Positions 2,290 to 32,186 are shown, numbered from the stretch's first letter. The stretch is DNA of 59,151 nt from a virus (IMGVR_UViG_3300044999_000021:1-59151), one strand, 5' to 3'. Made by a program: numbers and translations. The notes: generated by a model not told the origin, from the sequence alone.

Positions 2290-3513
2290 TTAGGTGATGG
2301 TCACAGTCCGCCCGGTGCCGATCGCCAGCGTGACGCCCGTAATGTCCGCGTCCGGCAGGATCACGCCGTTGGTGAACGTGCAGGTGTGGTACGGGTCGAA
2401 CAATTGGCCGCCTTCGTACAACGTGCAGTTCGTCACCGTCCGGCTCCGCAAGTCCTCGCGGAACGACGCCAAGCCGTTGCCGCCGACGTTCAGAGTCGTG
2501 ATCGTGCCCGTGGACTGGTAGGACAGTGAGCCGCCGTAGATCGTCGCTGTCGTGACCGCTCCCGAGCCGGTGATGGTCAGAACCCCGCCGTATCCGAGAA
2601 TCGTCGTCACTGCCGCCGCGAGCGCAACCGTGCCCCCGGACCAGTCAAGAGTGGTGAGTGTCAGGCCGACTCCGGCGACAACCGAGCTTGTGGCATTCGC
2701 CCCGGCTGCGATCCGCAGAGTCGTGACCGTGGACGTTTCCCCGGGCTGGTAGGCAACGCCCACCGCCCCATTGTTGACGTTCAGGCTGGTGATCGATGAA
2801 CCGGTAAGCGTGACAATCTGCTCGCCGCTCTGCGCCGTCCCGGTGGCATTGATGTTGAACGTGGTGGCCGTGCTGCCCGCGGCGAGCTTGATCCGCGTCG
2901 GCGCCCCGCCCACGTTGAACGTCGTCGCCCCGAGTTGCAGGTACTGGCCCCGCCACTCGGCGTATCCCTTGGTGTTCTGCGGCGGCAGGCCGATGGAGAA
3001 GGCCGAGTCCACGTTGTTGCCGACCGTGAACGTCGTCGGCAGGATGGTATGCGCGTCGAGGGCGTAAAGGATCGGCGGCAGGTTCGGCCCGTCCGCGATC
3101 ACGTTGTCCGTGCTGGCCGGCAGACTCCCCGTGGACCAGTTGGCCGTATTCGACCAATAGTTCGGCCCCGTGCCGCTCGTGACCGTTGCTGTGACGAACG
3201 TCGGGGATCCCGACCCGCCGGCTGCGGTCGCAAAGCTGATGTTCGCCCCGTTGGCCGGCCCGGTGACCGTGATGACCGCCCCGAGGACGCTGTAGGTCGA
3301 TTCCTGGAACTCCGGTTCCGGGCTCGCCTGGAGCAACGCCAGCACTCCCGCCGCGGCATCGCTCGCGCTGGTGGTCGTGGCCGTGAATACGACCGTCTTG
3401 CCGTTGGCATTTGTAACCGTGAAAGTGCTACCGCTCGCAACAGTGCCGCCGCACGTTAGGCTCAAGACGACAGGGACGGCCTGGGCAGTTCCCAACCAAA
3501 TTGGCGTTGCCAC
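2290..3513 (-). CDS. Virion tail protein, 407 aa, T/G/A-rich with beta-solenoid-like repeats
   Basis: Composition (ITTLNVGG, VTTATIYGG-type repeats) and position in tail module. Confidence 0.6.
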   Translation of the reverse strand: MATPIWLGTAQAVPVVLSLTCGGTVASGSTFTVTNANGKTVVFTATTTSASDAAAGVLALLQASPEPEFQESTYSVLGAVITVTGPANGANISFATAAGGSGSPTFVTATVTSGTGPNYWSNTANWSTGSLPASTDNVIADGPNLPPILYALDAHTILPTTFTVGNNVDSAFSIGLPPQNTKGYAEWRGQYLQLGATTFNVGGAPTRIKLAAGSTATTFNINATGTAQSGEQIVTLTGSSITSLNVNNGAVGVAYQPGETSTVTTLRIAAGANATSSVVAGVGLTLTTLDWSGGTVALAAAVTTILGYGGVLTITGSGAVTTATIYGGSLSYQSTGTITTLNVGGNGLASFREDLRSRTVTNCTLYEGGQLFDPYHTCTFTNGVILPDADITGVTLAIGTGRTVTIT

Positions 3514-3528
3514 GAATCACGCTCATGC

Positions 3529-3610
3529 CGCTCTCCCCAGAGCGTTCCCCCGGTTCGCGTTCGTGACTGGACGGCGGAGGAATTGCCGTCCGGGTTGCAA
3601 ACCCTGTCAC
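3529..3610 (-). ncRNA. Cis structured RNA motif, copy 1 (three-way junction + pseudoknot + 5-bp/6-nt G-loop hairpin)
   Basis: P1 GTGAC/GTCAC, P2 GGGTT-TGC-AACCC, P3 GGACGGC/GCCGTCC; loop TTCCTCC pairs with downstream GGGGGAA; P4 CGCTC-TGGGGA-GAGCG. Confidence 0.7.
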
Positions 3611-3630
3611 TGTAAAACGGAATCCTTAAC

Positions 3631-4707
3631 TCATCCGGCCAATGCAGCCGACGCCACCTTGGCACGGTCGCGGTCGATTTCCACGCCGAGAAACCGACGG
3701 CCGATCTTCTTGGCCGCGACCAGTGTTGTTCCGGACCCAGCCATCGGGTCAAGGACGATGCCGCCCTTTGGGCAAAGCAACTCGATCAGATTGGCCGCCT
3801 CCATTTGGCCTTGAGCCCAATCGTGCTTTTCCTTATCGCCTGGCTCTGACCGAATCCAGTCGATCAGGTACTCGCCGCGATAGGTTCCTTTGACGAACCA
3901 TAAGAGCGGCTTCCATGCGACATCGACCCTGACACCGTGCATCCGCCGCAGACCGCCGGAATGCCGAAGGGCAAGCATCCAGTGGTATCGAAGGTCGGTC
4001 ATTTGCTGGAAGATCGACGGCAGGGCGTATTGCCCGGCATAGCAAATCAAGCTGCCTCCCTCGACTAGAACGCGAGCGGCGAGTTTGGATATGTCGCCAT
4101 AGAGCGGGATCGATTCCTTGTCGTAGGGCGGGTCGGTGAAGATGAGGTCTACGCTGGCGTCGGGAAGGTCATCCAAGACCTTGCGGAAGTCGCCACACCG
4201 AACGCCGTCCACGAGTTTCACTTTCGAGGCAGCGGCGGATCGGAGCTTTTGATGGTTCTTCTTCTTGGCACTGCTGGTAGCCTTGCTGACCAGCTCCTTT
4301 GATGAGACAGGCTGCCCCTTGGCTTTTCGATCTGCCAGCACGAACTCGAATTCGTCTTCGGGTATTCCTGCGATCCGTTCGCACCGGTGAGCGGCTTGCG
4401 GAGTTAGGCCGGCGGTTTTAAGGGTGACAGCTTTCAAACTTCCGCTAGGTGGAAGTTTGAAAGCCCCGTTCTTTCCAGTCCCATGACCTTTCTCCAGCGC
4501 CGAAGAGATTTCCCCAATGCGCCGCTGTGCCCTCACCTTGATCTCGGCAGCCCACGTTTCAAGTTCATGGTCGTTCGCCTGTCGGCCGTAGGCCCGTAGC
4601 GCCTCGGCCTTGTCGCGGATGGCTTTGGCTTCGTCAACCTTGCTGCACCGGTCGAGCGATCGGCGGGCTTCTTCGTATCGGACCAAAACTCCGTTTCCGA
4701 TTGTCAC
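3631..4707 (-). CDS. DNA N6-adenine/N4-cytosine methyltransferase (beta-class motif order) with N-terminal helical extension, 358 aa
   Basis: IFTDPPY catalytic motif precedes VLDPMAGSGTT SAM-binding motif and RRFLGVEID. Confidence 0.9.
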   Translation of the reverse strand: MTIGNGVLVRYEEARRSLDRCSKVDEAKAIRDKAEALRAYGRQANDHELETWAAEIKVRAQRRIGEISSALEKGHGTGKNGAFKLPPSGSLKAVTLKTAGLTPQAAHRCERIAGIPEDEFEFVLADRKAKGQPVSSKELVSKATSSAKKKNHQKLRSAAASKVKLVDGVRCGDFRKVLDDLPDASVDLIFTDPPYDKESIPLYGDISKLAARVLVEGGSLICYAGQYALPSIFQQMTDLRYHWMLALRHSGGLRRMHGVRVDVAWKPLLWFVKGTYRGEYLIDWIRSEPGDKEKHDWAQGQMEAANLIELLCPKGGIVLDPMAGSGTTLVAAKKIGRRFLGVEIDRDRAKVASAALAG

Positions 4708-6515
4708 AGAATGTTCTCCATCTTGGTCGATTGGAGCTTCTGGCGGATTTTATGCCGGGCCTTCTCCATAGACTCCGGCGACGTCAAGTTCGTCGTCAAT
4801 GACCCGATGCTCAGGGCATCGTCAAAGTCCTTGTCCGTGAACTCCGGCCGGCCTCGATTCAGCCATGCCTGGATGACGAACTGGCCGGCCCGGACGCAGT
4901 ATTCCTCATCGAAGTGCCGCTTGGCCAGCGCCCGCACGTCGGCGTCCGCTCCCACGTCCTGATAGCAGGATTCCAAGCCTTCGACGTAACGGAAGTAGGC
5001 GGGGTTCAAGAGGACGGTGTTCTCTTCCTTGCGGTAGACGGCCGCCTTGCCGTTCATCTCTTCCAAGATGGCCGGGTCGTCGGTGAAGTCTACGACTGGA
5101 ATGCCGATGGACCGGGAGGGGAGTTTCTTGCCCGAAGCCGGTGGCCTCTGCGGCGTGGGCGTAGCCGAATCTTCGCGAGGCTTGGGATTGGGGTTCGGCG
5201 TCCCGTACCGACGTTTCTGCTCGCTGCCCTCGTGGCCGTTGTTTGCCGGATCGACGCTCGACCGCTCGTCAGCCGCTGCCTTCAGTTCTTCCAAGAACGC
5301 CTTCAGTCGTTCCATCACCCCTTTGTTGTTAGTTTGGCTGAGCGCCTGTTGCTCGACATATTCCACCAACCATTCCGGCCGGCTGATCCGCACCAACTCG
5401 GCGAACACCTCGACGCGCACGGGTTGATTGTCGCCATCGCGATCGATGACCTGATCTCGGTAATCGTTGTTTTTGATCGGGCAGTCGTCAGGAAGAAGAA
5501 TCTGCACTACGACGTTGGCACTGCCGAACGTCAGTCCGAACGGGCCAGCGATTCTGACCCACGACGTGTGGATGTCGTAGCACTCGTTCCGCCAAACGAG
5601 ACAGATATGATCGCCGCGGCTGCCCACTCCGTAAGCGTCCATCGTCCGCGCCCGCGAATGACCCAATTTGTCTCGGTTGTATTCGCCTTGCAGTTTGCAG
5701 TATCGAATCGTGATCGGCCCGAACGCCGGATGGACTGCCGGCACGTCCTCCATGCGAGCGCCGCCCTTGCCCGACTTGGCAAAGGACATCGTCAAGTCTT
5801 CCAGGCCGCTGGCAGCGCGTGGCTCGCGAGAACCAGTGGTGGCGAATGCCCCGCGAACGGTAATGCCTGGACCGAACCGATAGAACCGCGTGTTGATGAG
5901 TTGCATGAGCCAGTTCGTGGAGGCCATGCCGGGAATAAGCTTATGTACGGTGTCATGGTCGGCCGACTTGCCAAGGATGACGACTTCCGTCCAATCCACG
6001 TCGAGCGGGCGATCTCGCCGACCAGAGAAGTCATCTGTCACATCGATGACTTCTTCCCACGTCCCGTCGATATAGGTGCGACGCTTGACGTAGACCGGAT
6101 GATCGAATCCCGCTTGGTGTTCAGCGGCAAGAGTGATCTGCGAAACGCGGCCAAGGTGGCAGGAGCGGTAGACCATGCCGAAGGGACTCACTTTCAGACC
6201 GCTCACTTTGGCCCCTTGGCCAAAGTTCTGGTCGATGCCGAGTTGCTTGCCCGTGCTGGCCAAGTCCATCAGGCGGGACAGGTCTTCACCAGACATCCCG
6301 GGGCCTTCGTTGAACAGGCCGAGCTTCGGGACATCACCAACCGATTCCGTGAACCATTTGACCGTACCCGCCGGACTAACGCCGAGAGCGGCGTCTTCGG
6401 CGTTTTTGAGAAGTTCACGAATCACTGTCATACTGGGACAGTTTTCGATGAACTTGTGAATGAAGAACGGCTGATTTCGGAACTGAATGGGTTCGTTTCG
6501 AGTCGCAGTAGCCAC
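4704..6515 (-). CDS. GHKL (HSP90/MORC-like) ATPase protein, ~603 aa
   Basis: RELLKNAEDA (N box), NEGPGMS (G1), NFGQGAK (G2); start set at GTG 6515 with GGAG 8 nt upstream. Confidence 0.8.
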   Translation of the reverse strand: MATATRNEPIQFRNQPFFIHKFIENCPSMTVIRELLKNAEDAALGVSPAGTVKWFTESVGDVPKLGLFNEGPGMSGEDLSRLMDLASTGKQLGIDQNFGQGAKVSGLKVSPFGMVYRSCHLGRVSQITLAAEHQAGFDHPVYVKRRTYIDGTWEEVIDVTDDFSGRRDRPLDVDWTEVVILGKSADHDTVHKLIPGMASTNWLMQLINTRFYRFGPGITVRGAFATTGSREPRAASGLEDLTMSFAKSGKGGARMEDVPAVHPAFGPITIRYCKLQGEYNRDKLGHSRARTMDAYGVGSRGDHICLVWRNECYDIHTSWVRIAGPFGLTFGSANVVVQILLPDDCPIKNNDYRDQVIDRDGDNQPVRVEVFAELVRISRPEWLVEYVEQQALSQTNNKGVMERLKAFLEELKAAADERSSVDPANNGHEGSEQKRRYGTPNPNPKPREDSATPTPQRPPASGKKLPSRSIGIPVVDFTDDPAILEEMNGKAAVYRKEENTVLLNPAYFRYVEGLESCYQDVGADADVRALAKRHFDEEYCVRAGQFVIQAWLNRGRPEFTDKDFDDALSIGSLTTNLTSPESMEKARHKIRQKLQSTKMENIL

Positions 6516-6554
6516 GAGTTTTGCTCCGGTGCGGCATTGTGATTGGCTGGGCAG

Positions 6555-6565
6555 ATTGTACCCCA
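6555..6565 (-). promoter_or_regulatory. Possible -10 box (TACAAT) for the GHKL/MTase cassette
   Basis: TGGGGTACAAT about 40 nt upstream of the GTG start; -35 poor. Confidence 0.35.
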
Positions 6566-6580
6566 TCGCCGCTCGGTCGC

Positions 6581-7297
6581 CTACCTCCAAGAATTCGGCA
6601 AGCCGCCGAGCGATCCAACCGCGCCCATCGTGTACGCCCACTCGACCCGGCATTCCCACTTCTTCGCACCGACCCGCTTCACCGACCTCTTGAACGTCGG
6701 CGCCATGAGCAGCGACGACTTGAACAGAGGCCCTGGGGGTGTGGCGTAGCTCACTGGTGTCAGGCCCTGCGTCACCGCGTAGCCTTGCTGAATCAGACGA
6801 TTCGGAGTCTGCCCGTACAACTGCACGGGGATGGGGGCGGCGTTGGCAGGCAACTGGAAGTCGATCACGGGGCCGGAACCGGACGATTCCACCGTTTCGA
6901 GGAAGTCGAGCAGGACAGGGCCGGTGCCGATCGGGTATGTGGCCTGGACCGTGAAATTGAAGTCGCGGTAGGTCGCGAACTGAGCGCCCTTGTACGACGG
7001 GTAATTGACCCCGCCGAGACAACGGGTTCCCGTCGTGCTGCCGGCGTTCAAGAGCCGCTGGGCAATCGACCCGTCGTTCGCGATCAGGACCAAATCTTGG
7101 TTGTTGATCGTCAAGGCATTTTCGAGAGCAGAACATTTTGCCACAATCTGCGCCGGCGTCCCGGTCCACTGGCCCTCGACGGACATCATCACTTCGGTTT
7201 CGTAGACCTGATTGGCCGCGTTCTCCGTGCCGCGTTTGGCAACGGTCCACCCGGCGCCGTTGGCCTCCAAGAACGCATTCCCCCAGCGTATCTGCAT
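6581..7297 (-). CDS. Putative distal-tail-like virion protein, 238 aa
   Basis: First minus-strand gene after tape measure; beta-rich; GGAG RBS. Confidence 0.55.
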   Translation of the reverse strand: MQIRWGNAFLEANGAGWTVAKRGTENAANQVYETEVMMSVEGQWTGTPAQIVAKCSALENALTINNQDLVLIANDGSIAQRLLNAGSTTGTRCLGGVNYPSYKGAQFATYRDFNFTVQATYPIGTGPVLLDFLETVESSGSGPVIDFQLPANAAPIPVQLYGQTPNRLIQQGYAVTQGLTPVSYATPPGPLFKSSLLMAPTFKRSVKRVGAKKWECRVEWAYTMGAVGSLGGLPNSWR

Positions 7298-7451
7298 TGG
7301 TTCGCTCCGCCTTCACTGGCGTCAACCTCTTCAGGATGCTAAAACGGTCCCATCGGGACGGCCGGAGTAATTAACCGGCTTGAGCCTGTCCGGCGCCGCC
7401 GCATGTTCCTCGGCTCGCCGGACAGGCATTGCCCGACAAGGAACACAACCG

Positions 7452-7733
7452 ATGAGCGATACCGTGACCTACTACCAACTGCGCGGCTTCAGCACGATCC
7501 GCATCCAATGCAACCACGCCGACTGCTACGCGGTCAGCGAACTTCCGATCGAAAAGGTGGAAGCGGCGATGAAGAAAACAAACGCCTGCTGCCCAATATG
7601 CGGCAAGCCGTTCACGAAGCCATCCGTAGACGGCGGCGCGGACGTGGTCTCGGCCTTGGCCAAGATCATCATGGCGCTCAACGGATTGGCAGAGCATGTC
7701 GCCATCGATCTTCCCGTTCGGATCGACGCATAA
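7452..7733 (+). CDS. Small Zn-ribbon protein (moron), 93 aa
   Basis: CNHADC and CPICG motifs, AAGGA RBS, opposite strand to tail genes. Confidence 0.65.
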   Translation: MSDTVTYYQLRGFSTIRIQCNHADCYAVSELPIEKVEAAMKKTNACCPICGKPFTKPSVDGGADVVSALAKIIMALNGLAEHVAIDLPVRIDA

Positions 7734-7938
7734 CCGCGCCGCCGGGGCCGAGCATTCGCGTTTTCCAGTCATAATTCGCATGCTCGGTCCCCCCATTTCC
7801 CCGTCCAATCTTCCGGTTATGCCGCCTTTGCGGCCCCATCTATACCGGCGTTCCCTAGCCATTTCGCGCCCGTTCGCTTGCAATGCCCAAATCAGCGAAT
7901 TAGGCTGATCCCAGCTGAAAAACACTCCGGAGGTTCCG

Positions 7939-8796
7939 ATGATTCAGGTCACCTGCCCGGTCTGCTCCAAGCGCGGCCGCGTTCCGGATGAGGCGGCGGG
8001 GCGGTCGGTGCGGTGTTCCAAGTGCGCGGCGGAAATGCGGGTGCCGTTCGACAACGCCCGCGAATATCCCGTTGCGGCGGCTCCGATCATCTCGCCGCGC
8101 GTCGCCGCGACTGCAACGTACCGACCGACTTCGAGTGCGCCCAAGCGTTCCAAAATTCGATTTGTTATTGGAGCAATTATTTTTGTCGCACTGGCCGGAT
8201 TGTCCGCAGCGAGTTTCCTTGTTCCGGGAATACTTGGCCGTGGAAAAGAAACGAAGCAAGTAGCTAACACGCTGCCAGTTCGCCGGATAAACTCCAAGTT
8301 CAACGACCTCTACACAAAGGCCGATAAAGCCTATACATCGCTCGACGCGGACCTCGCCATGTCCTATGCAGATTCGGCTCTGCTTGCTGCCGAAACTGAC
8401 CGAGAAAAGGCCAGCGTTATAGCTCTCATGGCCTATTGCTGCTCCATTAAGGGCCACCACTCTACCGCCGCCGATTACTGGACAATGGCAATACGTTTGG
8501 AGCCAGAGGACTTCGGCCATCGCCTTGCTCGGTGCAAATGTCGATTTCAAGTTGCTAAAGAACGCAGCCTTGACACGGTTCGCCTTTGGATTCAAGTCGT
8601 TGACGACTCTCAGGACCTTGTGCGAAGAAACGACAAATGCGCGGAAGCGTGGATGATGCTGGGCGAAGCCCAGTGGTGCATATTTCAAAAGGACGCGGCA
8701 GAACAAGCAATCAGGAAATCCCTTTCGCTGGACCCGTCCAGGGAATCGAAATTGAAGGCACATGATCTTTTCCCTGACGCTTTCCCGCTTCCGTGA
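7939..8796 (+). CDS. Zn-ribbon + single TM + TPR-like membrane protein (moron), 285 aa
   Basis: CPVC...CSKC N-terminus, hydrophobic FVIGAIIFVALAGLSAASFLV, TPR-like AEAWMMLGEAQW...SLSLDP; GGAGG RBS; lower GC. Confidence 0.8.
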   Translation: MIQVTCPVCSKRGRVPDEAAGRSVRCSKCAAEMRVPFDNAREYPVAAAPIISPRVAATATYRPTSSAPKRSKIRFVIGAIIFVALAGLSAASFLVPGILGRGKETKQVANTLPVRRINSKFNDLYTKADKAYTSLDADLAMSYADSALLAAETDREKASVIALMAYCCSIKGHHSTAADYWTMAIRLEPEDFGHRLARCKCRFQVAKERSLDTVRLWIQVVDDSQDLVRRNDKCAEAWMMLGEAQWCIFQKDAAEQAIRKSLSLDPSRESKLKAHDLFPDAFPLP

Positions 8797-8808
8797 ATCC
8801 CGTTACGA

Positions 8809-10560
8809 TCAGTTGTTCTTGCCCATCAGAATCTGATCGTTCACCTGCCGCTTGATCTCGCGTTTCACTTCATCCAGGCTCAGCTTGATCGCCTCTGTGA
8901 CCGCTTCGCCGACGCCGACCGCAAAATCCTTGGCTGCTGCGGCCTGCTTCTGATCCGAAGCCGCTCCCTGCTCGGCCCGCAGTTTGCGAACCTCGTCATC
9001 CTGCTCAGCCAGCGGTTTCCGAATCTGGTCGCGCATTCCCGGCGGAGCTAGTTCGGCGAGTGCGTCGCGGACCGGCTGGCCGATCTGGTCGCCACGCCGC
9101 TTTATCATCGGATTGAGAATTTCCGCCGCGCCGGGGATGGACTGGGCGCGGGCAATCAACTCGGGCGGCAATGCTCCGATGCCGTGCTGCCCGATCAGCC
9201 GCAGAATTTGGGCGTCCTCCATCGCCTGCGCCGGCGTTCCTGCGCCGTACTGAAGGGCACGGCCTTCCGCTCCCTGAGCGATCTGCCCCTTTACGGCTAG
9301 TAGGGCTTGCGCGTGGCCAAGTTCCGCTCTGGCAAGATCGACGCGCTTCTGTTCGATGTCTGCGATTTGCTTTTGACTCAGGGCAAGCTGTTCGCCAAGT
9401 TGTTTGCTCTTTTCAAGAGCCAGCCCTTGCGCCCCACTTGCATTGCCTGTCGCTTCGGTTCCCGCATTGGTAATTCGACCGCCGAAGTTTTGGAACCGAC
9501 CAAAAAACTGGCCTCGCAAATCATCGCGAGCCTTTTGCGCCCGGTCGGCGGCGGTTTGCAGAGTATCCGCATCGGTCCCTTGGACCGACACACCTGGACG
9601 CATTCCTCTGATTTGGCCAAGCGTAGCCGCATGTTCCCGTTCGCGCACCGCAAGTTGCTCGCGGGCGGCGTTGACCTGCGATGCGGACTGGTCAGCTGCC
9701 TCGGTCAGGCCACCGTAGGCTTCCCGGTAGCTGCTCAACCTACCCGGTGTCAGGCTTGCCGCGTAGGCCGCCGATGCGTTTGCTGTGGCTGTCGCATCGC
9801 CGGAGTGGATTGTGGCACCGTAAATCGTCTGTGCCAGTTGCGCGCGGCCCGCGGACTCGGCACGGACAGCCTGCATTTGCCGACCTAGGACTGTCAGGCC
9901 AGCGGAAGTCATCGCTGCAATGGCCGGTATTCCGGACAGAGCATAGCCCGCGTCGCCGATGCTCTTGACAAACCCGCCGAGAATTGGAATCCCTTCGAGA
10001 AGATGCTTCCCAAACAGACTTGCCGCTTCATTGGCAGATACACCGCCGCCGCTGCTCATGGCCCGCTGAGCCGCTAGGTCGCCGATTTCTCCAGCCGCAG
10101 AGCCGGCCGACGTAACCACCTTGCCAGCGGCGTAGGCGGCCCCGATGAGCGGAGCGGCCCGCATCGCCATGCCCGCGACACCGCCGAACGACCCGGCTTG
10201 CCGAGCATACCACGGCAACGACGCCTGACGCCGCTCCTCGATTTCTCGCCGTGCCTGTTCAATCTGCCGCGACTGCTCGGCTCCCTGAATTTGCCGGCGA
10301 GCTTGCAGGTGCGGATCGAACGGCAACGGCGGCGGCTCCGGGCGAAGCTGCCGCATCTGCTGCTTGATCGCCCGCTCTTTATCGACGGCCTCCAGCCGCT
10401 TCTGCGCCTCGGCGAGCGCGTCGAATTCCTTTTGCGTTCCCTTGGCAGCGGCCCCGGCCTCGCGGGTGCCGGCGGCCAGGTCCTTCATGGCCTTCGCGCC
10501 GTCGGACGTTTTTACCTTCAGGTCTAAAACGACTTCGGTATTTTGGGTCTGATCCGACAT
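8809..10560 (-). CDS. Tail tape measure protein, 583 aa
   Basis: Ala/Gln-rich helical protein directly after the tail chaperone frameshift pair. Confidence 0.75.
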   Translation of the reverse strand: MSDQTQNTEVVLDLKVKTSDGAKAMKDLAAGTREAGAAAKGTQKEFDALAEAQKRLEAVDKERAIKQQMRQLRPEPPPLPFDPHLQARRQIQGAEQSRQIEQARREIEERRQASLPWYARQAGSFGGVAGMAMRAAPLIGAAYAAGKVVTSAGSAAGEIGDLAAQRAMSSGGGVSANEAASLFGKHLLEGIPILGGFVKSIGDAGYALSGIPAIAAMTSAGLTVLGRQMQAVRAESAGRAQLAQTIYGATIHSGDATATANASAAYAASLTPGRLSSYREAYGGLTEAADQSASQVNAAREQLAVREREHAATLGQIRGMRPGVSVQGTDADTLQTAADRAQKARDDLRGQFFGRFQNFGGRITNAGTEATGNASGAQGLALEKSKQLGEQLALSQKQIADIEQKRVDLARAELGHAQALLAVKGQIAQGAEGRALQYGAGTPAQAMEDAQILRLIGQHGIGALPPELIARAQSIPGAAEILNPMIKRRGDQIGQPVRDALAELAPPGMRDQIRKPLAEQDDEVRKLRAEQGAASDQKQAAAAKDFAVGVGEAVTEAIKLSLDEVKREIKRQVNDQILMGKNN

Positions 10561-10561
10561 G

Positions 10562-10990
10562 TCACTGGTCCTTTCGTCTCAGCATCCGTCCCAACGTCAC
10601 CAGACCCTCGGTCGCGCTCTGCCGTTCAACGATGTCCTCGACCTCGCGAATGATCGCCGCGTGTCTCCGCACCAGCGGATCGGCCACCTCCGGAACCTGC
10701 CAGCCCACCGCTCGGCATTCGCGGTAGTGCATCCAACACTCCCGGTTCCGTTCGTCCAGTTCCACCGCCGATGCCGGGATGGGCGGTTCTCCCGGCGGTA
10801 CTTTCGGGCAACGGTCGCATGGCGTCGGACCCCTTCGTTTCATCCGGTCGGCCGGGTCGGTTGACGACGACGGCTTGTGGACGCAAACTCCGGTCGGCTC
10901 ATACTGAAATTCGATGCACTCGGCACAACTCAGAGCGGCCGTGGCTGGATGAGCCAATTCCAGCCAAATGCCGCGGGCTAGTTTTTTCCC
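10562..10990 (-). CDS. Tail assembly chaperone -1 frameshift extension (GT-like), Cys-rich
   Basis: -1 frame from GGGAAAAAAC reads KLARGIWLELAHPATAALSCAEC... up to 2 nt before the tape measure start. Confidence 0.75.
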   Translation of the reverse strand, partial: GKKLARGIWLELAHPATAALSCAECIEFQYEPTGVCVHKPSSSTDPADRMKRRGPTPCDRCPKVPPGEPPIPASAVELDERNRECWMHYRECRAVGWQVPEVADPLVRRHAAIIREVEDIVERQSATEGLVTLGRMLRRKDQ

Positions 10991-11337
10991 GCACCCACGC
11001 TCGGCCCTTGATAGCCGAGGATGCGGTTGACAATTCCGTGCCAGAGGTTCGCATGGAGCTTCTTCAACGTCTCGGCGGTCAGCACCACCGGCTCGCCGAC
11101 AACCTCTTTGCCGGCCGCATCCACGTCGATCGGAGTGAAGGTCTGGTTCTCGACATGGCTGATAATCAGCTTCACCGCCGCCTCATCAGCCTTGGCCTCT
11201 GGCGTGGCTTGAAACGCCCGCGTCTCAGGACCGGTGCACGGCCGGTAGGTGAACCGCAAGGCCGGGTGAAGGCCAGCAACAGCCGGGATGGTGTCGGTGA
11301 AAGCGTAGCCGTCGGTAACAAACATCGAAACGGACAT
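10978..11337 (-). CDS. Tail assembly chaperone (G-like), 119 aa
   Basis: Between tail tube and tape measure, GGAG RBS, ends GCG GGA AAA AAC TAG. Confidence 0.75.
   Translation of the reverse strand: MSVSMFVTDGYAFTDTIPAVAGLHPALRFTYRPCTGPETRAFQATPEAKADEAAVKLIISHVENQTFTPIDVDAAGKEVVGEPVVLTAETLKKLHANLWHGIVNRILGYQGPSVGAGKN
10981..10990 (-). promoter_or_regulatory. Programmed -1 ribosomal frameshift site G GGA AAA AAC
   Basis: XXXYYYZ heptamers (GGGAAAA, AAAAAAC) at the canonical lambda G/GT position. Confidence 0.8.
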
Positions 11338-11354
11338 CGAATAGTCTCCGTGAA

Positions 11355-12272
11355 TCAAGAGGTTGCCAAAGTAACCGCCAATTCGTCGCCGGCTGCGGTC
11401 GTTCCCCGGGCTGATCCGGACAACGCCAGCATGATCTCTTCTCGGCTGGACGCGGTCGGCGTCGGGTCCTCGAATTGCACCAGCGGCATCGAGAATGTCA
11501 GGACGTAAACGCCGTTCGTGTAGACCGCTGTGACGGGGACGCCGCCTTGGCTCAATGCGTAAGCCGCTGCGGCGTCGCCGTAGGGAAGGCTGGCCGACAC
11601 GGCAATACGCCGGTCGGTCGCCTGAATGGTTTGCAGGTCTTGAGTGTTGAAGTACCGCCCGGCATCGACGGCGTTGTCGAGCGTGATCGTGAAGTCCTTG
11701 CACTGGTAGATCGTGCTGTTGATTGTCAGCACCAATTCATGGTGCATCCAGGGATTCGTCGTCTTGTCCAGCGTGAACGACGGGAAGCTGCTGCCGGCAG
11801 TCGTGCTGTCCTCGGAACTGAGCCCGGACCCGACCGCGCCGAGCAAGTCCAGGTCAGCCGCGAGCGGAGCGCCTTGAGACGAACTAATCCGAGCGCTGCC
11901 CACGCCGACAACGGGATATTTGAAGATTTTGCCGGCACCCGTCGGGCTCAGGCCGCGCAGCACCCAATATGCCTGCATCAGGAGATTTTCAGCTTGCGGG
12001 TAACTGGTTCCGCTGGGAGTGCCGCCGAGAATCCACGGCAGCAACGTCTCCCATTCGATGGCCGTTGGTTGGCAGGACAGCGGACCACCCACCGGGCGGA
12101 TTCCCGGCACGGCCCGGTTAGCCCAGCGGGTTCGCGTTCCGGCGAGCGCGTTCGTGTCCACGAGCGGGCGCTGGCGCTTGAGGTTCTCGGAAACGAAGTC
12201 CATCGCCGTGCCCGGGGTGCCGTTGGCAGCGCCCAAGAGCAGCTTGGCAGTCACGCCCATTGATCCGGCCAT
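11355..12272 (-). CDS. Tail tube (major tail) protein, 305 aa
   Basis: Size, synteny and tube-like motifs (LAGTRTR, DFTITLDN, RRIAVSASL); no sheath gene seen. Confidence 0.8.
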   Translation of the reverse strand: MAGSMGVTAKLLLGAANGTPGTAMDFVSENLKRQRPLVDTNALAGTRTRWANRAVPGIRPVGGPLSCQPTAIEWETLLPWILGGTPSGTSYPQAENLLMQAYWVLRGLSPTGAGKIFKYPVVGVGSARISSSQGAPLAADLDLLGAVGSGLSSEDSTTAGSSFPSFTLDKTTNPWMHHELVLTINSTIYQCKDFTITLDNAVDAGRYFNTQDLQTIQATDRRIAVSASLPYGDAAAAYALSQGGVPVTAVYTNGVYVLTFSMPLVQFEDPTPTASSREEIMLALSGSARGTTAAGDELAVTLATS

Positions 12273-12286
12273 GTCTCACCATCGAT

Positions 12287-12364
12287 CACCCTCCCCCGGG
12301 TGTCTTCCGTGTTTCACAGCGGCAGGACGGCGGAAGATGCCGTCCGGGTTGCAAGCCCTGCCGC
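12287..12364 (-). ncRNA. Cis structured RNA motif, copy 2
   Basis: P1 GCGGC/GCCGC, P2 GGGCT-TGC-AACCC, P3 GGACGGC/GCCGTCC; loop TCTTCC pairs with downstream GGAAGA; P4 CACCC-GGGGGA-GGGTG. Confidence 0.7.
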
Positions 12365-12369
12365 GATTT

Positions 12370-13149
12370 CTACGCTCCGAATCCCCGCGCCTCCCGGCAA
12401 ACGAACCGCATCAGAAACGCCGAGCCGGTGACCGCTAACAGTCCAAGTTTACCCGATACCGTAACGGCGTCCGGTTCAATTCGGCATGTCATGACCTCGG
12501 GGACGCCCGGCAACAACTGCTCCCGGAACGATCGTAGCAGGCCCTGCCGGTTCTTGTGCCGCCGCTTGTCGATCGCCTGCCGGTCCGCTGGCGTCTCGGG
12601 TTCGCGGTCCAGCAGGGTCACCATGACCGGATAGCCGCGGTCGTCCCGCTGGTTCGTGCCGCCGATCTCCGATTCGCTCTTGCCGAAGATGCTCAGCACC
12701 ACGCACGGGAACTGCACGGCGCTCAGGTCTTCATATTCCTTGACATACACCTGCGCGATTCCAGGGAGGGCCAGCAGTTTGATCCGGGCTTGTGTGGCGT
12801 CGAATATCCTATCGTGCAGGCAGTCCAGCCCGCTCGTCGCCACAGCATAGACCGGCATCGAAAACGAGCATACGCCCCCGGACGTTTGCGACACGGCCCA
12901 CCAAAGGTAGAACCCGTTCGGCGTCGCTACCGAAACGCTTCCGCTGGAGACAAGGCTGGCAACCTGATGCCAGGGCAGGTTGATCCCCATCGCGCCTGTC
13001 CCGACAACCGCCTGCTGTGGAACGCCTCCCGATAACGAACTGCGGTAGACGATCGTGCTGGTCGCTGTTGGGTCGATTGTCAACGCAACCGTGTTGCCGC
13101 TGCCATTGGCGTTGTCCTGCACGGTGAGAACCGGGGAGGCAATGCTCAT
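12370..13149 (-). CDS. Putative tail terminator/neck protein with N-terminal beta domain, 259 aa
   Basis: Synteny just before tail tube; FPCVVLS motif typical of terminators. Confidence 0.55.
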   Translation of the reverse strand: MSIASPVLTVQDNANGSGNTVALTIDPTATSTIVYRSSLSGGVPQQAVVGTGAMGINLPWHQVASLVSSGSVSVATPNGFYLWWAVSQTSGGVCSFSMPVYAVATSGLDCLHDRIFDATQARIKLLALPGIAQVYVKEYEDLSAVQFPCVVLSIFGKSESEIGGTNQRDDRGYPVMVTLLDREPETPADRQAIDKRRHKNRQGLLRSFREQLLPGVPEVMTCRIEPDAVTVSGKLGLLAVTGSAFLMRFVCREARGFGA

Positions 13150-13619
13150 CGGGTCAGTCCCGTCTCCTGACCAAAGATCTTCCCGGCCAACGTTGCCAGA
13201 TTGCGCCGAAGTTTTTCGCTGAAGCCGACGAACGGCCGGGCAACCATGAACTTCGTGCCGTCCTGATGGAAGTGGGCGTAGGCCAAATTCGTTCCCAGCG
13301 TCAGACCGTCCTGCGTCGTCCGCTGAACGTGTCCTTGCCCGCTGGTGAGGCTGGCAAGCAGTAGCCCGGTATCACGCAGCGGCTGCTGAGTCCCTGCCCC
13401 CTTGGCCTTTCGGTCCCGCTTGCGTCGCCGTGGATGCTTTAGCGGAGCGAACGGCGTCCCATCCGGAGACTTGCTGTCATCAATGCCGCGTTTCAACTCC
13501 GAGGAGCAGAGAATCGCCGCCGCACTTAGGAACTTCGGCACGGCCCCGGGCATGGCGTTTGCGCCCGCCTCCAGTTGGTCGGCCATTTCGTCCAGAGATA
13601 TGCTTTTCCCGAATCCCAC
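13146..13619 (-). CDS. Phage virion morphogenesis protein (Mu G-like), 157 aa
   Basis: SPDGTPFAPL, LRDTGLLLASL, GTNLAYAHFHQDG, ARPFVGFS motifs. Confidence 0.85.
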   Translation of the reverse strand: MGFGKSISLDEMADQLEAGANAMPGAVPKFLSAAAILCSSELKRGIDDSKSPDGTPFAPLKHPRRRKRDRKAKGAGTQQPLRDTGLLLASLTSGQGHVQRTTQDGLTLGTNLAYAHFHQDGTKFMVARPFVGFSEKLRRNLATLAGKIFGQETGLTR

Positions 13620-13622
13620 GGG

Positions 13623-14045
13623 TCACCAGCGGGTGTTGAGGCTGAAGATGTCGCCACAGTTGCGGATCGGCCCGAACCCGACCCTCTGCTGCCCGTTCTG
13701 GACGTTCTGCAACGCGCCTGCGACCGTGAAGCTGACCGTCTTCAGTTCCTTGCGGCGGTCGTACTTCAACGGCCAAACATCGCCCGTTTCGGTGTTCACC
13801 TGATCGATCATGAGCCAGTAGATCGCCAAGTCCCGATTGAACTCGACAGCCCGGTCCCAAAGGTCGATCTGACTCTTGAGGAATCCCCGCTCCTGCATGA
13901 TGGTGAGGATGTCCCCGTACCCGCGGGCGTTGGCCACAGTGACCCCGTCGGACGTGCCCGGTGGCAGTTCCGACGCGTTGGTGTTCTTCATCAGAACGAC
14001 CGTCAGGTATGCCAGAATGTCAACGTCGCTGAGGTAGGTTGGCAT
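13623..14045 (-). CDS. Putative head-tail adaptor, 140 aa
   Basis: Helical protein starting MPTYLS..DI, at adaptor position after capsid. Confidence 0.55.
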   Translation of the reverse strand: MPTYLSDVDILAYLTVVLMKNTNASELPPGTSDGVTVANARGYGDILTIMQERGFLKSQIDLWDRAVEFNRDLAIYWLMIDQVNTETGDVWPLKYDRRKELKTVSFTVAGALQNVQNGQQRVGFGPIRNCGDIFSLNTRW

Positions 14046-14048
14046 GGG

Positions 14049-14312
14049 TCACTTCATGGATGGGCCGACCATCTTTTTCCGCTGGTTCTCTACCCTGCGA
14101 GCTTCCGCCTTCTCGGCATCCGCACGGTGGGCCATCGTCCGCAACATGCCGTCTTCAAGCGTCCCCTCTACGGGGACTGGATCAGGCTTCACTGCCAGCG
14201 GGTGGTTTGGCACGGGCAGCCCGCAGACGGAGCAGCAAATCACTTCGCCCTTCGTGCAGAGTTGGGCGCGGCATTGCTCGCACTGGCCCAGTCGGTTCAT
14301 CGTGTCCGGCAT
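14049..14312 (-). CDS. Small Zn-finger protein, 87 aa
   Basis: CEQC...CSVCG; GGAGG RBS. Confidence 0.65.
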   Translation of the reverse strand: MPDTMNRLGQCEQCRAQLCTKGEVICCSVCGLPVPNHPLAVKPDPVPVEGTLEDGMLRTMAHRADAEKAEARRVENQRKKMVGPSMK

Positions 14313-14321
14313 AGCGTCCTC

Positions 14322-14546
14322 CTAGATGTTTTGCTGGCAGATGCGGGCCAACACGCCCTGAACTCCGCCGACAAATGGCAGGTTGTTGGCGACAAGTCGC
14401 TCGTATTCCTCGTGAAAACCCCTGCTGTGGCGAGCGCACAAAAACCCCGGCCTGCTGACGCAATAGCACTCGCCTCGAGCGTCCATTTCATCAAGCTGTC
14501 GCATTTTCGCGACCTGCGGATGCTCTATGATGGGCAGATCATTCAT
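14322..14546 (-). CDS. Hypothetical protein, 74 aa
   Basis: ORF filling the gap after the capsid terminator. Confidence 0.55.
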   Translation of the reverse strand: MNDLPIIEHPQVAKMRQLDEMDARGECYCVSRPGFLCARHSRGFHEEYERLVANNLPFVGGVQGVLARICQQNI

Positions 14547-14560
14547 CGTCGCATCCCCGG

Positions 14561-14596
14561 AAAAGAAAACGGCCCGGCCAGCATTGGCCAGGCCGC
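14561..14596 (-). terminator. Rho-independent terminator after the major capsid gene
   Basis: CGGCCTGGCCA-ATGC-TGGCCGGGCCG followed by TTTTCTTTT. Confidence 0.7.
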
Positions 14597-14626
14597 AAGG
14601 TAACGTGAATCCACTCACCCGCCGCG

Positions 14627-15634
14627 TTAGTTCATGAAAGCGGAGGGGATGAACTTCGCCCACTTCTTGTACAAGTTCGGGTTGCTGATCGTCTGGGCCG
14701 TTCCGCTGCCCGGCGTTGCCCCCGAACCCTGACCACCCGGAACATACGTCGCGATGTTCTCCAGGCCCAACGCCTGCGCGGCGATCCGCTCCAGCTTGGT
14801 CGAGCCGACCAGGATCATGTTCGTGTCGTTGAACTCCGCCTGCTCGTGGATGTACTCGCCGTCCTCGCTGACAATCGCCTTCGGCAGCGTGAACGTCCGT
14901 AGCGCGTCGCTGATCGTCTGGAGGCCGACCTGGAAGTCCAGCACGGTCGGCAGGTTCGTCCACTCAAACAGGACGGCATCCCACCAGTAACCGAACGCGG
15001 CTTGGCCTTCCAAGTCGATCCAGTAGTGGATTTCCTTGGCTTCATAGGCCAAGTCCGATCCGGAGTTGTCGCGGAACTGAGCCGGCTTGCGGTCCTGCCA
15101 CAACAGCGGCTTGAGCGCTCCGCCGGTGTACATGGCTGCGAGACGGTAAACGAGTCCGTCGCTGTTGCCGTTGCCGGTCCCGGCGTAGAGGTTGTTGCCC
15201 GCGCCGATCGAATGGCTGCCGGCGAAGAAGTTCGATCCGTCGAAGCAAGCCGCGCTCTTCCCGGTGGCCAGCGTCTTGATGACAAACCGGCCGGGGAACA
15301 ACTTGGCCCGCATCGCCAGTTCGCGCGGCTTCAACTTGTAGCCGCCCGTCTGGTCGTCCTCGATGTCGCGCATCAGGACGCTGAAGGCCGCGTCGAATTC
15401 CTTGTTCTCGACCGTGTACTTGACAGTCGAGAGCTTTCCGAATCGCCGGTGGCCGGAGTATGCGGCCAGACCGGGAGCGGGGGACATCCAGGTGTAGTTT
15501 TCGATCCGAGCGGTACTCGGAATGACCTGGGTGAACTGTTCCCACGGCGCGGGTTCGGCGGTCGGCGCATAGGCGACCTCGAACTCATTCCGCATCGCGA
15601 CGGTGAAAATCTGGACCTGTGAGTCAATGGACAT
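14627..15634 (-). CDS. Major capsid protein, Mu gpT-like, 335 aa
   Basis: IPSTARIENYTWM, YTVENKEFDAAFSVLMRDIEDDQTG, CFDGSNFF, AAFGYWW motifs. Confidence 0.9.
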   Translation of the reverse strand: MSIDSQVQIFTVAMRNEFEVAYAPTAEPAPWEQFTQVIPSTARIENYTWMSPAPGLAAYSGHRRFGKLSTVKYTVENKEFDAAFSVLMRDIEDDQTGGYKLKPRELAMRAKLFPGRFVIKTLATGKSAACFDGSNFFAGSHSIGAGNNLYAGTGNGNSDGLVYRLAAMYTGGALKPLLWQDRKPAQFRDNSGSDLAYEAKEIHYWIDLEGQAAFGYWWDAVLFEWTNLPTVLDFQVGLQTISDALRTFTLPKAIVSEDGEYIHEQAEFNDTNMILVGSTKLERIAAQALGLENIATYVPGGQGSGATPGSGTAQTISNPNLYKKWAKFIPSAFMN

Positions 15635-15648
15635 TCATCACCGTCTCG

Positions 15649-15727
15649 CCCCCGCCCCAGGGGGTCCCCGTTTGTCTCAGGCGGCTGATTGGTCGGGGAT
15701 GACCAATCGGGGTGCCCCCCTGCCGCC
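15649..15727 (-). ncRNA. Cis structured RNA motif, copy 3 (most divergent)
   Basis: P1 GGCGGC/GCCGCC, P2 GGGG-GGCA-CCCC, P3 GATTGGTC/GACCAATC; loop TCCCC pairs with downstream GGGGA; P4 CCCCC-TGGGGC-GGGGG. Confidence 0.7.
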
Positions 15728-15740
15728 CTTTTTCGTGGCC

Positions 15741-15932
15741 TTACGCCGCGCCGTTCAACTCCGCATTGACTTCCCGTCCCCGGGCTTCGTCACTGGCCGC
15801 CTGCTCCGCTTCGAGGAGCATGTACCGCACGACCTGAAGCGCGCCGTCGCACCGGTTCAACTGCGCTAGAACACCGGCCCGCTCGTTTTCGAGCATGGCA
15901 ATTTTTGCTTTAAGATCGCCGATGGTCAGCAT
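15741..15932 (-). CDS. Small coiled-coil protein, 63 aa (possible fibre chaperone)
   Basis: TAATG overlap with upstream gene; heptad pattern. Confidence 0.6.
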   Translation of the reverse strand: MLTIGDLKAKIAMLENERAGVLAQLNRCDGALQVVRYMLLEAEQAASDEARGREVNAELNGAA

Positions 15933-17614
15933 TAGCTCGCCGCTCCCTTGATGACAGCGAAGTTGATGACGATGGCCTCGCTCAGCGTTCCGGCCGAAAG
16001 GTTGGTCACCGAAATCTGGCACGACCCCGCTGCCACCGTGTCAACGATGACTGCGTAGGTGCCCCCTGTGGCCGCCCCTGACTTGATTGAGACGACCACA
16101 GTATCGGTCGCTGCGATGGCCGAGTCGGTCAGCGTGAACGAGACGCGGGTCAGCGTTGTCAACGCCGCGTTGTTCATCGTGATCGCGCCGGTGACATTGT
16201 TGAGCGTCACACCGGTTGATTTGTTGGTCGCCTGGGTGACAGCGCCACCGGCCCCGGTTGCATAGCCCACGCCGCCGGTAGGCGACGTGCTTTTGACCGA
16301 GGTGCCAAAGGCAACCGCGGTGGCGTTCGTGCCGCCGATCGTGATGGTTCCACCCGTGCCGCCGGCTGCCGCCCCGCAGTCGATTGTGATGGAACCAGCC
16401 GTGCCGGTTCCACCAGCGGACGCACCGGAAGCGATTGTGACAGCGCCGCCCGTGCCGGTGCCGGTCGCAACGCCGCCGGTGACCTGCGCGGCCCCGCCGG
16501 AACCGTTGGTCGAAAGCGATGCCCCGCCGACAATCTTGGAAACGCCGCCGTTGCCGGTCGCACCAGCGCCGGATGCTCCACCGGTCAGGCCGGCGATGGC
16601 CCCCGCAGCCGTTCCGTTGCCGGCCCCGGCTGCGAGCGTCAGCGCTCCGGCTGTCGCATTGCCGTTCGTGCCTGCTCCCCCTGTGATTGTGACCGCCGCT
16701 CCGGACCCGGAAGTCGCCCCGCCGGCACCGCCGGTGATTGTCACAGCACCGCCGGTGCCAGTCGTTCCGCCGGCACCGCCGACCAGAGACGACGCCCCGC
16801 CAGCGGCCGAGCCTTGCCCGGCCCCGCCCGTAAGGCTGACAAGACCGCCGGCCGCATTGCCGGCCGTTCCCGCACCGCCGGCCATGACGACAGTTCCGCC
16901 CGCTCCGGACGCTGAACCACCGATGCCGCCGGTGACCGTAACCCCACCGCCGGTGTTGCCTGTTCCAGTGGCTGCGACACCGCCGATTTTCGTGACTTCC
17001 GACCCGTCGGTCGTCGTGAACGTCATATAGACGTTCGTGCCCTGCTGAATGACCAGCGCCGACGCTTCGTTGTCGGGGATGGCGATGTTGTTTTGGCCAG
17101 TCGTGCCGGCGAATGTCAGCGTGTTGTTCGCGATGGCCAGCGCCTGCGCGCCCGGTACCCATGCCGGGATGATCTCGACCATCGTTCCGGTCGTTCCGGT
17201 TGTCACTGTGAGGATGACCTTGGACACCCAGCCGACCAGAATCGAATTGGTGACACCGGCCACATAGGCGACATGGCTGTCGTCCAAAGCGTAGACCGCC
17301 TTGCCCTCATCCCCAGCGGTCGCAAGGGCGATCGGCATGGTGAACTTGAGCGGCTGATCGACCTCGACCAACTTGTCGCCGAGAACGTCGGTCGTTGCGA
17401 CAGTGACTTTGTCGCCGGTCGAGCTGCCGACCATGATGCCGGTGAATGTCAGGCCCGCAGTGTCGCCCGCCTTCACAGCGTTGCCCGACGCATTCAGGGC
17501 GATCATCGACCCGATGTAATAAGTCGCGTTCGTGCCGACATCGATTCGCCGGTAGTCTTTGGTCTGGGTGTATGGGACCGTTGTGGACCCGACGCCAGCG
17601 GTAGCATTCGCCAT
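15932..17614 (-). CDS. Capsid decoration-like domain fused to a long Gly-rich repeat region (putative head fibre), 560 aa
   Basis: N-terminal cement-like motif (IYxGSMIAL-type, GKAVYALDD, VGWV) then repeats of GGAVTITGGAG; lies between scaffold and capsid genes. Confidence 0.7.
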   Translation of the reverse strand: MANATAGVGSTTVPYTQTKDYRRIDVGTNATYYIGSMIALNASGNAVKAGDTAGLTFTGIMVGSSTGDKVTVATTDVLGDKLVEVDQPLKFTMPIALATAGDEGKAVYALDDSHVAYVAGVTNSILVGWVSKVILTVTTGTTGTMVEIIPAWVPGAQALAIANNTLTFAGTTGQNNIAIPDNEASALVIQQGTNVYMTFTTTDGSEVTKIGGVAATGTGNTGGGVTVTGGIGGSASGAGGTVVMAGGAGTAGNAAGGLVSLTGGAGQGSAAGGASSLVGGAGGTTGTGGAVTITGGAGGATSGSGAAVTITGGAGTNGNATAGALTLAAGAGNGTAAGAIAGLTGGASGAGATGNGGVSKIVGGASLSTNGSGGAAQVTGGVATGTGTGGAVTIASGASAGGTGTAGSITIDCGAAAGGTGGTITIGGTNATAVAFGTSVKSTSPTGGVGYATGAGGAVTQATNKSTGVTLNNVTGAITMNNAALTTLTRVSFTLTDSAIAATDTVVVSIKSGAATGGTYAVIVDTVAAGSCQISVTNLSAGTLSEAIVINFAVIKGAAS

Positions 17615-31906: not shown

Positions 31907-32186
31907 ATCAGGCCCACGGGAGCGCATCCCCGTGTGGCCGGCCGGTGGAGCGCGGGTGGCCGGACCAACCCGCAGCGGCCTGAAAAGCCGCCACTCCACC
32001 GGTTTTTACCACCTACGCAACCAGAACCCCGCTGACGGAGCGGGCCGTGTGCGAGTCGCGGGTCGGTGGCTTGACCCTGAACGCCTTACCGGAGCTAACG
32101 ACGATGACTGCGACCGACGGCGTAGAGAGGATCATTCCCTCTCGGTCGCACTGATTCAACCATCACTCCCTAACCGGAGGCATTCC

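Follow-up and report, generated by a model that had tools for sequence, protein, structure and literature searches.

A covarying three-way-junction and pseudoknot RNA in the leaders of phage virion genes

The record IMGVR_UViG_3300044999_000021 (hereafter the window, meaning the whole stretch of 59,151 bases that was analysed) is a complete virus record with direct terminal repeats and a G+C content of 62%, and represents a Mu-like siphophage genome. Its minus strand raises an intriguing question: what is the RNA element that stands just before the start codons of three genes, encoding the major head protein, the tail tube and a protein of 407 amino acids (aa), and that keeps one architecture over different sequences? 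Judged from sequence comparison, the element is a real family of structured RNAs with strong comparative support, small as yet (14 contigs) and not found described. As for its function, the explanation that we tentatively place first is a cis-acting boundary module that would guard the 5' side of its cistron and organize the ribosome-binding site.

The three sites (3610-3529, 12364-12287 and 15727-15649, all on the minus strand; table 1) share, when read from the sequence, the order P1, A, P2, P3, one nucleotide and the 3' strand of P1 (P1'), and every feature listed for them in a preliminary description of this DNA is indeed found there. P1 comprises five or six pairs (GTGAC/GTCAC, GCGGC/GCCGC and GGCGGC/GCCGCC) with a single A next to it in each copy, P2 is a short hairpin with GCA at its tip, and P3 is a helix of 7-8 bp that carries a pyrimidine-rich loop (L3) and is separated from the 3' strand of P1 by one nucleotide. 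About ten A/C-rich nucleotides (nt) lead from P1' to a purine tract (S4) complementary to L3, the respective sequences being TTCCTCC/GGGGGAA (with one G-U pair), TCTTCC/GGAAGA and TCCCC/GGGGA. Directly after S4 comes P4, a 5-bp hairpin with stems CGCTC, CACCC and CCCCC and loops of the form NGGGGN (TGGGGA, GGGGGA and TGGGGC), and spacers of 15, 14 and 14 nt extend from there to the start codons GTG 3513, ATG 12272 and ATG 15634. The stretch before P1 is A/U-rich within G+C-rich DNA, and at copy 2 the upstream gene ends with a stop codon (12372-12370) 5 nt short of P1.

Minimum free energy folding of every leader returns the three-way junction and P4. The stability of the single sequences is unexceptional (z = -1.60, -1.90 and -1.33, with 15, 10 and 24 of 200 shuffles equally stable). 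Copies 1 and 2 are near-identical in P2 and P3, and differ in P1, L3/S4 and P4 in a compensated manner. If the parts stack, P3, the pseudoknot and P4 would form a quasi-continuous stack, a geometry that we infer.

Table 1. Coordinates of the three copies of the element and of other features of the window (R2 and R3 are covariance models).
Feature	Position	Strand	Details
Copy 1, whole leader, P1 to GTG of the 407-aa gene	3511..3610	minus	R2 83.9 bits, R3 76.7 bits
Copy 1, three-way junction	3563..3610	minus	P1 3610-3606/3567-3563; A 3605; P2 3604-3592; P3 3591-3585/3575-3569; L3 3584-3576; J 3568
Copy 1, S4 and P4	3529..3551	minus	S4 3551-3545; P4 3544-3529 (loop TGGGGA); 7-bp pseudoknot TTCCTCC/GGGGGAA
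Copy 2, whole leader, P1 to ATG of the tail-tube gene	12270..12364	minus	R2 78.3 bits, R3 69.9 bits
Copy 2, three-way junction	12319..12364	minus	P1 12364-12360/12323-12319; A 12359; P2 12358-12346; P3 12345-12339/12331-12325; L3 12338-12332; J 12324
Copy 2, S4 and P4	12287..12308	minus	S4 12308-12303 (GGAAGA; L3 TCTTCC); P4 12302-12287 (loop GGGGGA)
Copy 3, whole leader, P1 to ATG of the major head gene	15632..15728	minus	44 bits with a model not trained on copy 3
Copy 3, three-way junction	15680..15727	minus	P1 15727-15722/15685-15680; A 15721; P2 15720-15709; P3 15708-15701/15694-15687; L3 15700-15695; J 15686
Copy 3, S4 and P4	15649..15670	minus	S4 15670-15665 (CGGGGA; pairs with L3 and the closing G); P4 15664-15649 (loop TGGGGC)
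407-aa gene	2290-3513	minus	no family assignment; sits in the tail-fibre region
DNA methyltransferase	3631-4707	minus	inserted between tail genes
583-aa open reading frame (ORF) in tape-measure position	8809-10560	minus	no family match; further large ORFs after it
Tail tube	11355-12272	minus	PF18906, E 1.8e-12
Terminator-like hairpin	14569-14596	minus	12 G+C-rich pairs, then a T run; about 30 nt past the capsid stop codon
Major head protein gpT	14627-15634	minus	PF10124, E 3.4e-37

Alignments of the element were built by iterating covariance models from R1 through R2 to R3, the last made from 21 sequences; MAFFT alignments were rejected as not structure-consistent. A model built from copies 1 and 2 alone recovers copy 3 (44 bits, E = 3.6e-9), and the same two-copy model, with filters off, finds eight further sites in related phage DNA at E < 0.06, all on the coding strand and just 5' of a structural gene. 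In the whole window, R2 with filters off finds exactly three copies (74-84 bits), the next match scoring 13.4 bits (E = 1.8), while R3, applied to 324 kb of related loci, gives 24 matches of 29.3 bits or more, the rest scoring at most 20.3 bits. These 24 matches represent 23 distinct sequences from 14 phage contigs, and all are sense-strand sites with a start codon immediately downstream.

The window contains four P4-type hairpins against 1.1 expected, three of the four being the element sites. A composite descriptor finds the three window copies plus about five doubtful matches in 114 kb of relatives; a loose three-way-junction descriptor fitted more than 100 places in the window and proved useless as a search tool. 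Scanning IMG/VR for one P4 subtype gave at least 119 stretches, and among the 80 loci examined R3 matched two contigs already in the set and L062 (related loci carry L numbers throughout). The last was dropped as a new copy, being a long plain hairpin beside the pre-selected pattern. R3 found no matches in five Gemmatales genomes with related prophage capsids and 151 further genomes, a result that says little since only 29-150 of hundreds to thousands of candidates were scored per genome.

The 23 distinct sequences provide the principal evidence that the structure itself is maintained. Within the helices, 92.5% of the 466 cells of the pairing table pair, compared with 59.2% after shuffling; 138 cells are double-changed, and double changes affect 19 of the 21 pairs. 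Compensatory changes were found in P1, P2, P3 and P4. In P1 all cells (100%) pair and all five pairs include double changes; in P4 four of the five pairs do, the loop being conserved and the stem variable. The covariation score is 0.766, as against 0.07-0.11 (maximum 0.111) with the partners slid by 1-3 columns, and in four of five covariation measures 0 of 500 shuffles reached the observed value. The alignment was fitted to the model, by which the structure is favoured in the covariation counts; the slid controls and the independent detection of copies by R1 nevertheless argue for a real signal. The pairing table further contains 15 G-U cells by our count, which, together with the strand bias of all matches, fits an RNA made from the sense strand.

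Infernal cannot model pseudoknots, and the L3-S4 interaction was therefore tested apart from the covariance models. When combined with its own S4, L3 forms on average 5.48 contiguous bp, compared with 4.44 for permuted combinations, a difference reached in 0 of 10,000 permutations and mirrored by the duplex energy. The pairing extends over at least 5 bp in 22 of the 23 copies and is realized by at least 12 different sequences, for example TACCCT/AGGGTA, TTCCCAT/ATGGGAA, TCCAC/GTGGA, GCCTC/GAGGC and AACCCG/CGGGTT. An alternative pairing of L3 with L4, the P4 loop, also does better in own than in permuted combinations (2/10,000), but it may be a by-product, as the copies of one phage have the same L4 but different L3 sequences, and as L4 and S4 are alike in the capsid copies. 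With the same fold recurring in different sequences across 14 phage contigs, the comparison indicates that the fold is under selection. The preliminary description had argued from the three copies alone for compensatory change and selection on RNA structure, and the wider set bears this out.

Its further remark, that the element was not recognized as a named Rfam family, holds as well: Rfam 15 gave no match at gathering score over the 59,151 bases on both strands, and in the region 3300-16000 no family overlapped the sites even at E <= 10, including every model of exoribonuclease-resistant RNAs (xrRNAs), ribozymes and riboswitches. No phage leader of such a kind was found described in the literature covered, subscription journals lying outside that coverage. 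A structured pseudoknot RNA inside an operon with terminator-like hairpins nearby might nonetheless suggest a processive antitermination RNA (put-like or EAR-like), a riboswitch or a ribozyme, a set of possibilities that we regard as very improbable. The junctions are variable (J2/3 0-5 nt and J3/1 0-3 nt, with varying sequence), with only the A before P2 and the GGG of the P4 loop recurring, which leaves no ligand pocket or catalytic core. Several copies stand before particular genes, rather than one near a promoter, and such terminators as were seen precede the element or follow the capsid gene. No run of T follows P1' or P4, and there is no terminator-like site at the three elements, which speaks against a terminator or attenuator as well. 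Antitermination, ligand sensing and self-cleavage are thus unlikely, given the lack of both a conserved junction core and T runs.

Which genes carry the element was traced among relatives collected by capsid-based searches (6 and 11 loci from IMG/VR, 25 from metagenomes and 6 from genomes). Of the 23 distinct copies, 14 stand before capsid genes and six before decoration-like genes, with one each before the genes for a tail tube, a chaperone-like protein and the 407-aa protein. Among the element-bearing phages the capsid gene always has a copy (the capsid-leader copies of relatives being those of L001, L002, L003, L005, L009, L010, L014, L016, L018, L020, L021, whose sequence is the same as in L047, L042 and L048), and some phages add one at a decoration-like, tube, chaperone-like or other virion gene. 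The proposed association with leaders of abundant virion proteins accordingly stands for the capsid, with its 14 leaders overall, and for the tail tube. The decoration-like gene lies just upstream of the capsid gene in six phages; phrog_1731 was detected in two of five proteins scanned, and all six begin with MANxx. In L005 a copy precedes a chaperone-like gene of 146 aa that lies before the tape measure. In three complete relatives the capsid gene carries the only copy, as judged by a whole-record search of imperfect sensitivity (it missed one known copy).

Seventeen capsid relatives with upstream sequence, including five prophages in Gemmatales and Gemmata genomes, have no element and show plain GGAG-type leaders. 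In the capsid tree the element occurs in three clades, and its distribution requires six gains or losses, at least three of which are forced by well-supported branches; on this phylogenetic evidence, the element is one that has been repeatedly gained or lost. Gemmatales are the only named lineage with related capsid genes, but as hosts they are unproven, the case being based only on prophage capsids that are 42-45% identical.

The element keeps a rather strict distance from the start codon, P4 ending 12-16 nt before it in 21 of the 23 copies. The longest spacers, of 16, 21 and 25 nt (L009, L001 and L042, respectively), each contain an extra small hairpin (L009 2010-2023, L001 4498-4519 and L042 5978-6000), and the one in L001 partly covers GGAGG. 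Shine-Dalgarno complementarity in the spacers is moderate. In our reading, a GAG occurs at most 8 nt after P4 in about 15 of 23 copies, and the spacer usually opens with G-Y-G-A-G. Other genes of the window phage carry GGAG-type sites, which implies that its host uses Shine-Dalgarno pairing. The idea that the element replaces a strong Shine-Dalgarno site was considered and is unsupported (p = 0.19). True starts are GTG in seven of the 23 copies, and in 13 the spacer contains an ATG, compared with 4.5 expected (0 of 20,000 base shuffles reach 13). These ATGs lie 4-13 nt before the true start and always out of frame (3526-3524, 12282-12280 and 15638-15636 on the minus strand of the window, plus ten in relatives), and the conserved protein N-termini begin at the downstream codon, not at the spacer ATG. 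A short conserved upstream ORF beginning at the spacer ATG was rejected, the frames running for 4-54 codons and encoding unrelated peptides.

The even spacing, the GTG starts and the passed-over out-of-frame ATGs could all reflect start-site selection by the element, in which the knot would dock on the platform of the 30S subunit and, like an internal ribosome entry site (IRES), act as a ruler that places the P site about 14 nt further on, with little dependence on Shine-Dalgarno pairing. We consider this quite unlikely in view of the moderate Shine-Dalgarno complementarity and of the three spacers of 16-25 nt with an extra hairpin, and we know of no bacterial precedent.

From one late transcript, phages produce capsid and tube subunits in the hundreds and the products of neighbouring genes in only a few copies, a difference mostly ascribed to Shine-Dalgarno strength and terminators. 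The position and context of the element suggest that it is a 5'-boundary module of its cistron, and this is the explanation we prefer, albeit tentatively. The element would be a self-folding mRNA leader cassette of about 85 nt, set at a fixed distance from the ribosome-binding site of the virion genes in highest demand, and its compact knot would form the 5' boundary of its own cistron within a long late transcript. The A/U-rich stretch before P1 could be processed endonucleolytically, leaving a 5' end that is base-paired and hard to unwind, so that the mRNA of the protected cistron would outlive neighbouring parts. At the same time, the knot would hold the short segment with the Shine-Dalgarno sequence and the start codon in single-stranded form, with a rigid helix at a set distance from it, and would shield it from upstream sequence and from ribosome traffic, whereby initiation would be efficient and the correct codon used. 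The net effect would be more protein from the element's cistron than from adjacent genes, and control of virion-protein stoichiometry, as the preliminary description had it, is a reasonable candidate role.

Several leaders of relatives have such a candidate boundary within 7-45 nt before the element. In L018 the structural operon includes a tRNA-Met (CAT) gene (1728-1802), whose end lies 13 nt ahead of the element of the decoration-like gene, and in L009, L042 and the chaperone copy of L005 strong terminator-like hairpins, with energies between -19.7 and -24.7 kcal/mol and in one case a U run, are found 9-41 nt upstream. It is at such tRNA and hairpin structures that new 5' ends should arise. 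The window itself showed no tRNA genes; in it, a hairpin beyond the capsid gene (14569-14596) looks like an intrinsic terminator or a 3' stabilizer and, together with copy 3, brackets the capsid cistron. A similar hairpin occurs directly after the capsid gene in L007 (5041-5105), which is on the same contig as L001.

The hairpin closest to the ribosome-binding site has features of its own. The P4 loop always retains GGG, and unusual loops are common to all copies of one phage and occur in no other (ACGGGA in 3/3 copies of L005, TGTGGGA in 2/2 of L018 and AGGGTAA in 2/2 of L014), even as the P4 stems of these same-phage copies covary and their L3/S4 sequences differ. Such a pattern, with a conserved loop on a variable stem directly 5' of the ribosome-binding site, would be expected of a translational operator in which the element, above all the G-rich loop of P4 beside the Shine-Dalgarno sequence, binds a trans-acting factor that switches several structural genes together; candidates for the factor would be a late regulator encoded by the phage, a small RNA and a component of the ribosome. 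The MS2 and T4 gp43 operators have the same anatomy as the placement of P4. An operator is, in our view, possible but rather unlikely: no family of RNA-binding proteins turned up in Pfam scans of 75 crude ORFs of the window, an operator leaves the three-way junction and the pseudoknot unexplained, and loop identity within a phage may reflect recent duplication or gene conversion, as two L005 copies have an identical 3' half. These two copies (8636-8720 and 9896-9987) are the same in the S4-proximal linker, P4 and GTGAG and different in P1, P3 and L3/S4, which suggests partial gene conversion or modular exchange between copies.

The resemblance of the fold to viral xrRNAs raises the question of whether the element is a true exoribonuclease-resistant RNA. 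The L3-S4 latch would then ring the 5' strand, a 5'-to-3' exonuclease would stall at P1, and the stable mRNA would start at the element. The two-dimensional plan is the same as that reported for flaviviral xrRNAs, an A/U-rich single strand precedes P1, and 16-19 nt separate the 3' end of P3 from S4 by our count, as compared with the 15-16-nt ring given for solved xrRNAs (PMC8374639); moreover, a flaviviral xrRNA is reported to stop bacterial RNase J1 in vitro (PMC5760640). We nevertheless hold this explanation to be improbable. No xrRNA family matches even at E <= 10, and the pseudoknot between the 5' end and the junction of xrRNAs needs two unpaired junction nucleotides. The window copies have single ones only (the P1-P2 and P3-P1' joints each contain one unpaired nucleotide and the P2-P3 joint contains none), and inspection by eye revealed no consistent partner for a second pseudoknot in the relatives. 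RNase J, the known 5'-to-3' exoribonuclease of bacteria, scored above the cut-off in 0 of 31 Gemmatales genomes (best score 44.7 bits, compared with the cut-off of 400), as against 8 of 14 controls, although Gemmatales are not proven to be the hosts. Finally, a nuclease block needs no tight spacing to the start codon. The likeness to xrRNAs claimed earlier hence applies to the two-dimensional topology, not to a model match or, in the window copies, to a second pseudoknot, and the nuclease block proposed with it is weakened by the RNase J result and by the spacing and the spacer features, which point at least as much to the ribosome-binding site. Among several candidate mechanisms, that of an xrRNA does not have the strongest support.

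A broader and rather doubtful possibility is that the element is a bacterial-virus counterpart of a eukaryotic viral RNA machine, being either an IRES-like ruler acting about 14 nt after P4 or a mechanical nuclease block of the xrRNA type, the first in a DNA phage. In the former case, GTG starts would be usable and nearby out-of-frame AUGs ignored; in either, one portable cassette would determine how much individual cistrons of a late operon yield.

To return to the boundary module, several considerations weigh against it. The spacer ATG is not explained by a boundary and, if used, would lower output. Predicted Shine-Dalgarno pairing does not differ, averaging -6.4 kcal/mol in leaders with the element and -7.1 kcal/mol in 15 element-free capsid orthologues (p = 0.19). 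A plain hairpin would suffice for 5' protection, and protection alone does not account for so elaborate a fold. The phage-specific P4 loop hints at a trans-acting partner outside the model, and a clear 3'-end structure just upstream is present in only 4-5 of the 23 copies. Lastly, the sister capsid genes of L020 and L025 (branch support 96/92) occur with and without the element, respectively, which indicates that it is dispensable.

The genes served by the element belong to a Mu-like structural module on the minus strand of the window, in which the terminase is followed by the portal (PF06074), a protease, a 560-aa gene with a phrog_1731 head domain, gpT, a gene for a Phage_tail_S protein and the tail tube (see table 1 for these and later genes). 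The preliminary description had named the three downstream genes as major capsid, tail tube and a tail gene; the first two assignments are confirmed by PF10124 and PF18906, whereas 'tail gene' for the 407-aa gene derives only from its position. GTG 3513 is the true start of this gene, since the conserved N-terminus aligns in 26 of 27 aligned homologues; the database call begins 16 codons downstream. The 407-aa protein has no sequence matches in Pfam, PHROG or PDB, and its Atlas neighbours are viral hypothetical proteins. Its AlphaFold model is confident (predicted local distance difference test score, pLDDT, 94.2) and beta-rich, with no clear PDB match, the best Foldseek hit being to outer domains of phage sheath proteins at only E 5.5e-3 and a TM score of 0.21. 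The element was not seen upstream of 22 IMG/VR homologues, which have plain leaders as inspected by eye, with no model search. The family of the 407-aa protein (35 homologues) is so far almost restricted to uncultured viruses.

Elsewhere in the window, a strong three-stem structure with a 9-pair closing helix, unrelated to the element, lies in an intergenic region near divergent early genes (31942-32002, minus strand), and a near-perfect inverted repeat of 16 pairs lies within the methyltransferase gene (4430-4464, plus strand). A papain-family cysteine protease (PF00112), a PAPS-reductase-domain protein and a DUF4326 protein are encoded at 54153-55376, 37575-38471 and 43499-43897, respectively.

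With good support from covariation, the element can be described as a portable RNA fold, about 85 nt long, that marks high-copy genes. Whatever its mechanism, it represents an additional RNA family in soil and freshwater phages of a group that has been little studied, and it could find use in G+C-rich bacteria as a part that insulates genes or boosts their expression.

Among known systems, the Mu-gpT-DE RNA motif of Rfam is likewise linked to Mu-like major head genes, but it lies downstream of gpT and its model does not match the window. The MS2 coat-protein hairpin, the T4 gp43 operator and the T4 gene 32 pseudoknot resemble the element in having a covarying hairpin with a conserved loop 5' of the Shine-Dalgarno sequence or a pseudoknot in the leader; unlike them, one element serves several different genes and includes a three-way junction, and an operator role is only putative for it. 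The 5' untranslated region (UTR) of ompA in Escherichia coli and the leaders of Bacillus aprE and SP82 are 5' stabilizers thought to protect the 5' end and to keep the ribosome-binding site open, and they share with the element the placement of a structured module before the ribosome-binding site of an abundant protein. These are, however, simple hairpins or polypurine tracts at the 5' ends of primary transcripts, whereas the element is a pseudoknotted junction inside an operon, present in up to three copies per genome at a fixed spacing to the start. The closest topological parallel is with flaviviral xrRNAs of class 1, whose reported layout likewise combines a three-way junction of P1, P2 and P3, a pseudoknot of L3 with a downstream tract (S4) and a hairpin directly after it (PMC5760640), with a connecting strand of similar length. 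Further marks of the class, which belong to its three-dimensional structure, are a conserved C in the junction, a U-A-U (or C+-G-C) base triple and a 5' end threaded through the ring. The two have no similarity in sequence or at the level of models, and the window copies lack the junction nucleotides for the 5'-end pseudoknot. A 2021 review places xrRNAs in lineages of RNA viruses, the word 'phage' being absent from its main text (PMC8374639). Flaviviral xrRNAs lie in the 3' UTR of an RNA virus, whereas the element described here lies in the 5' leader of genes of a double-stranded DNA phage, 12-16 nt before the start codon.

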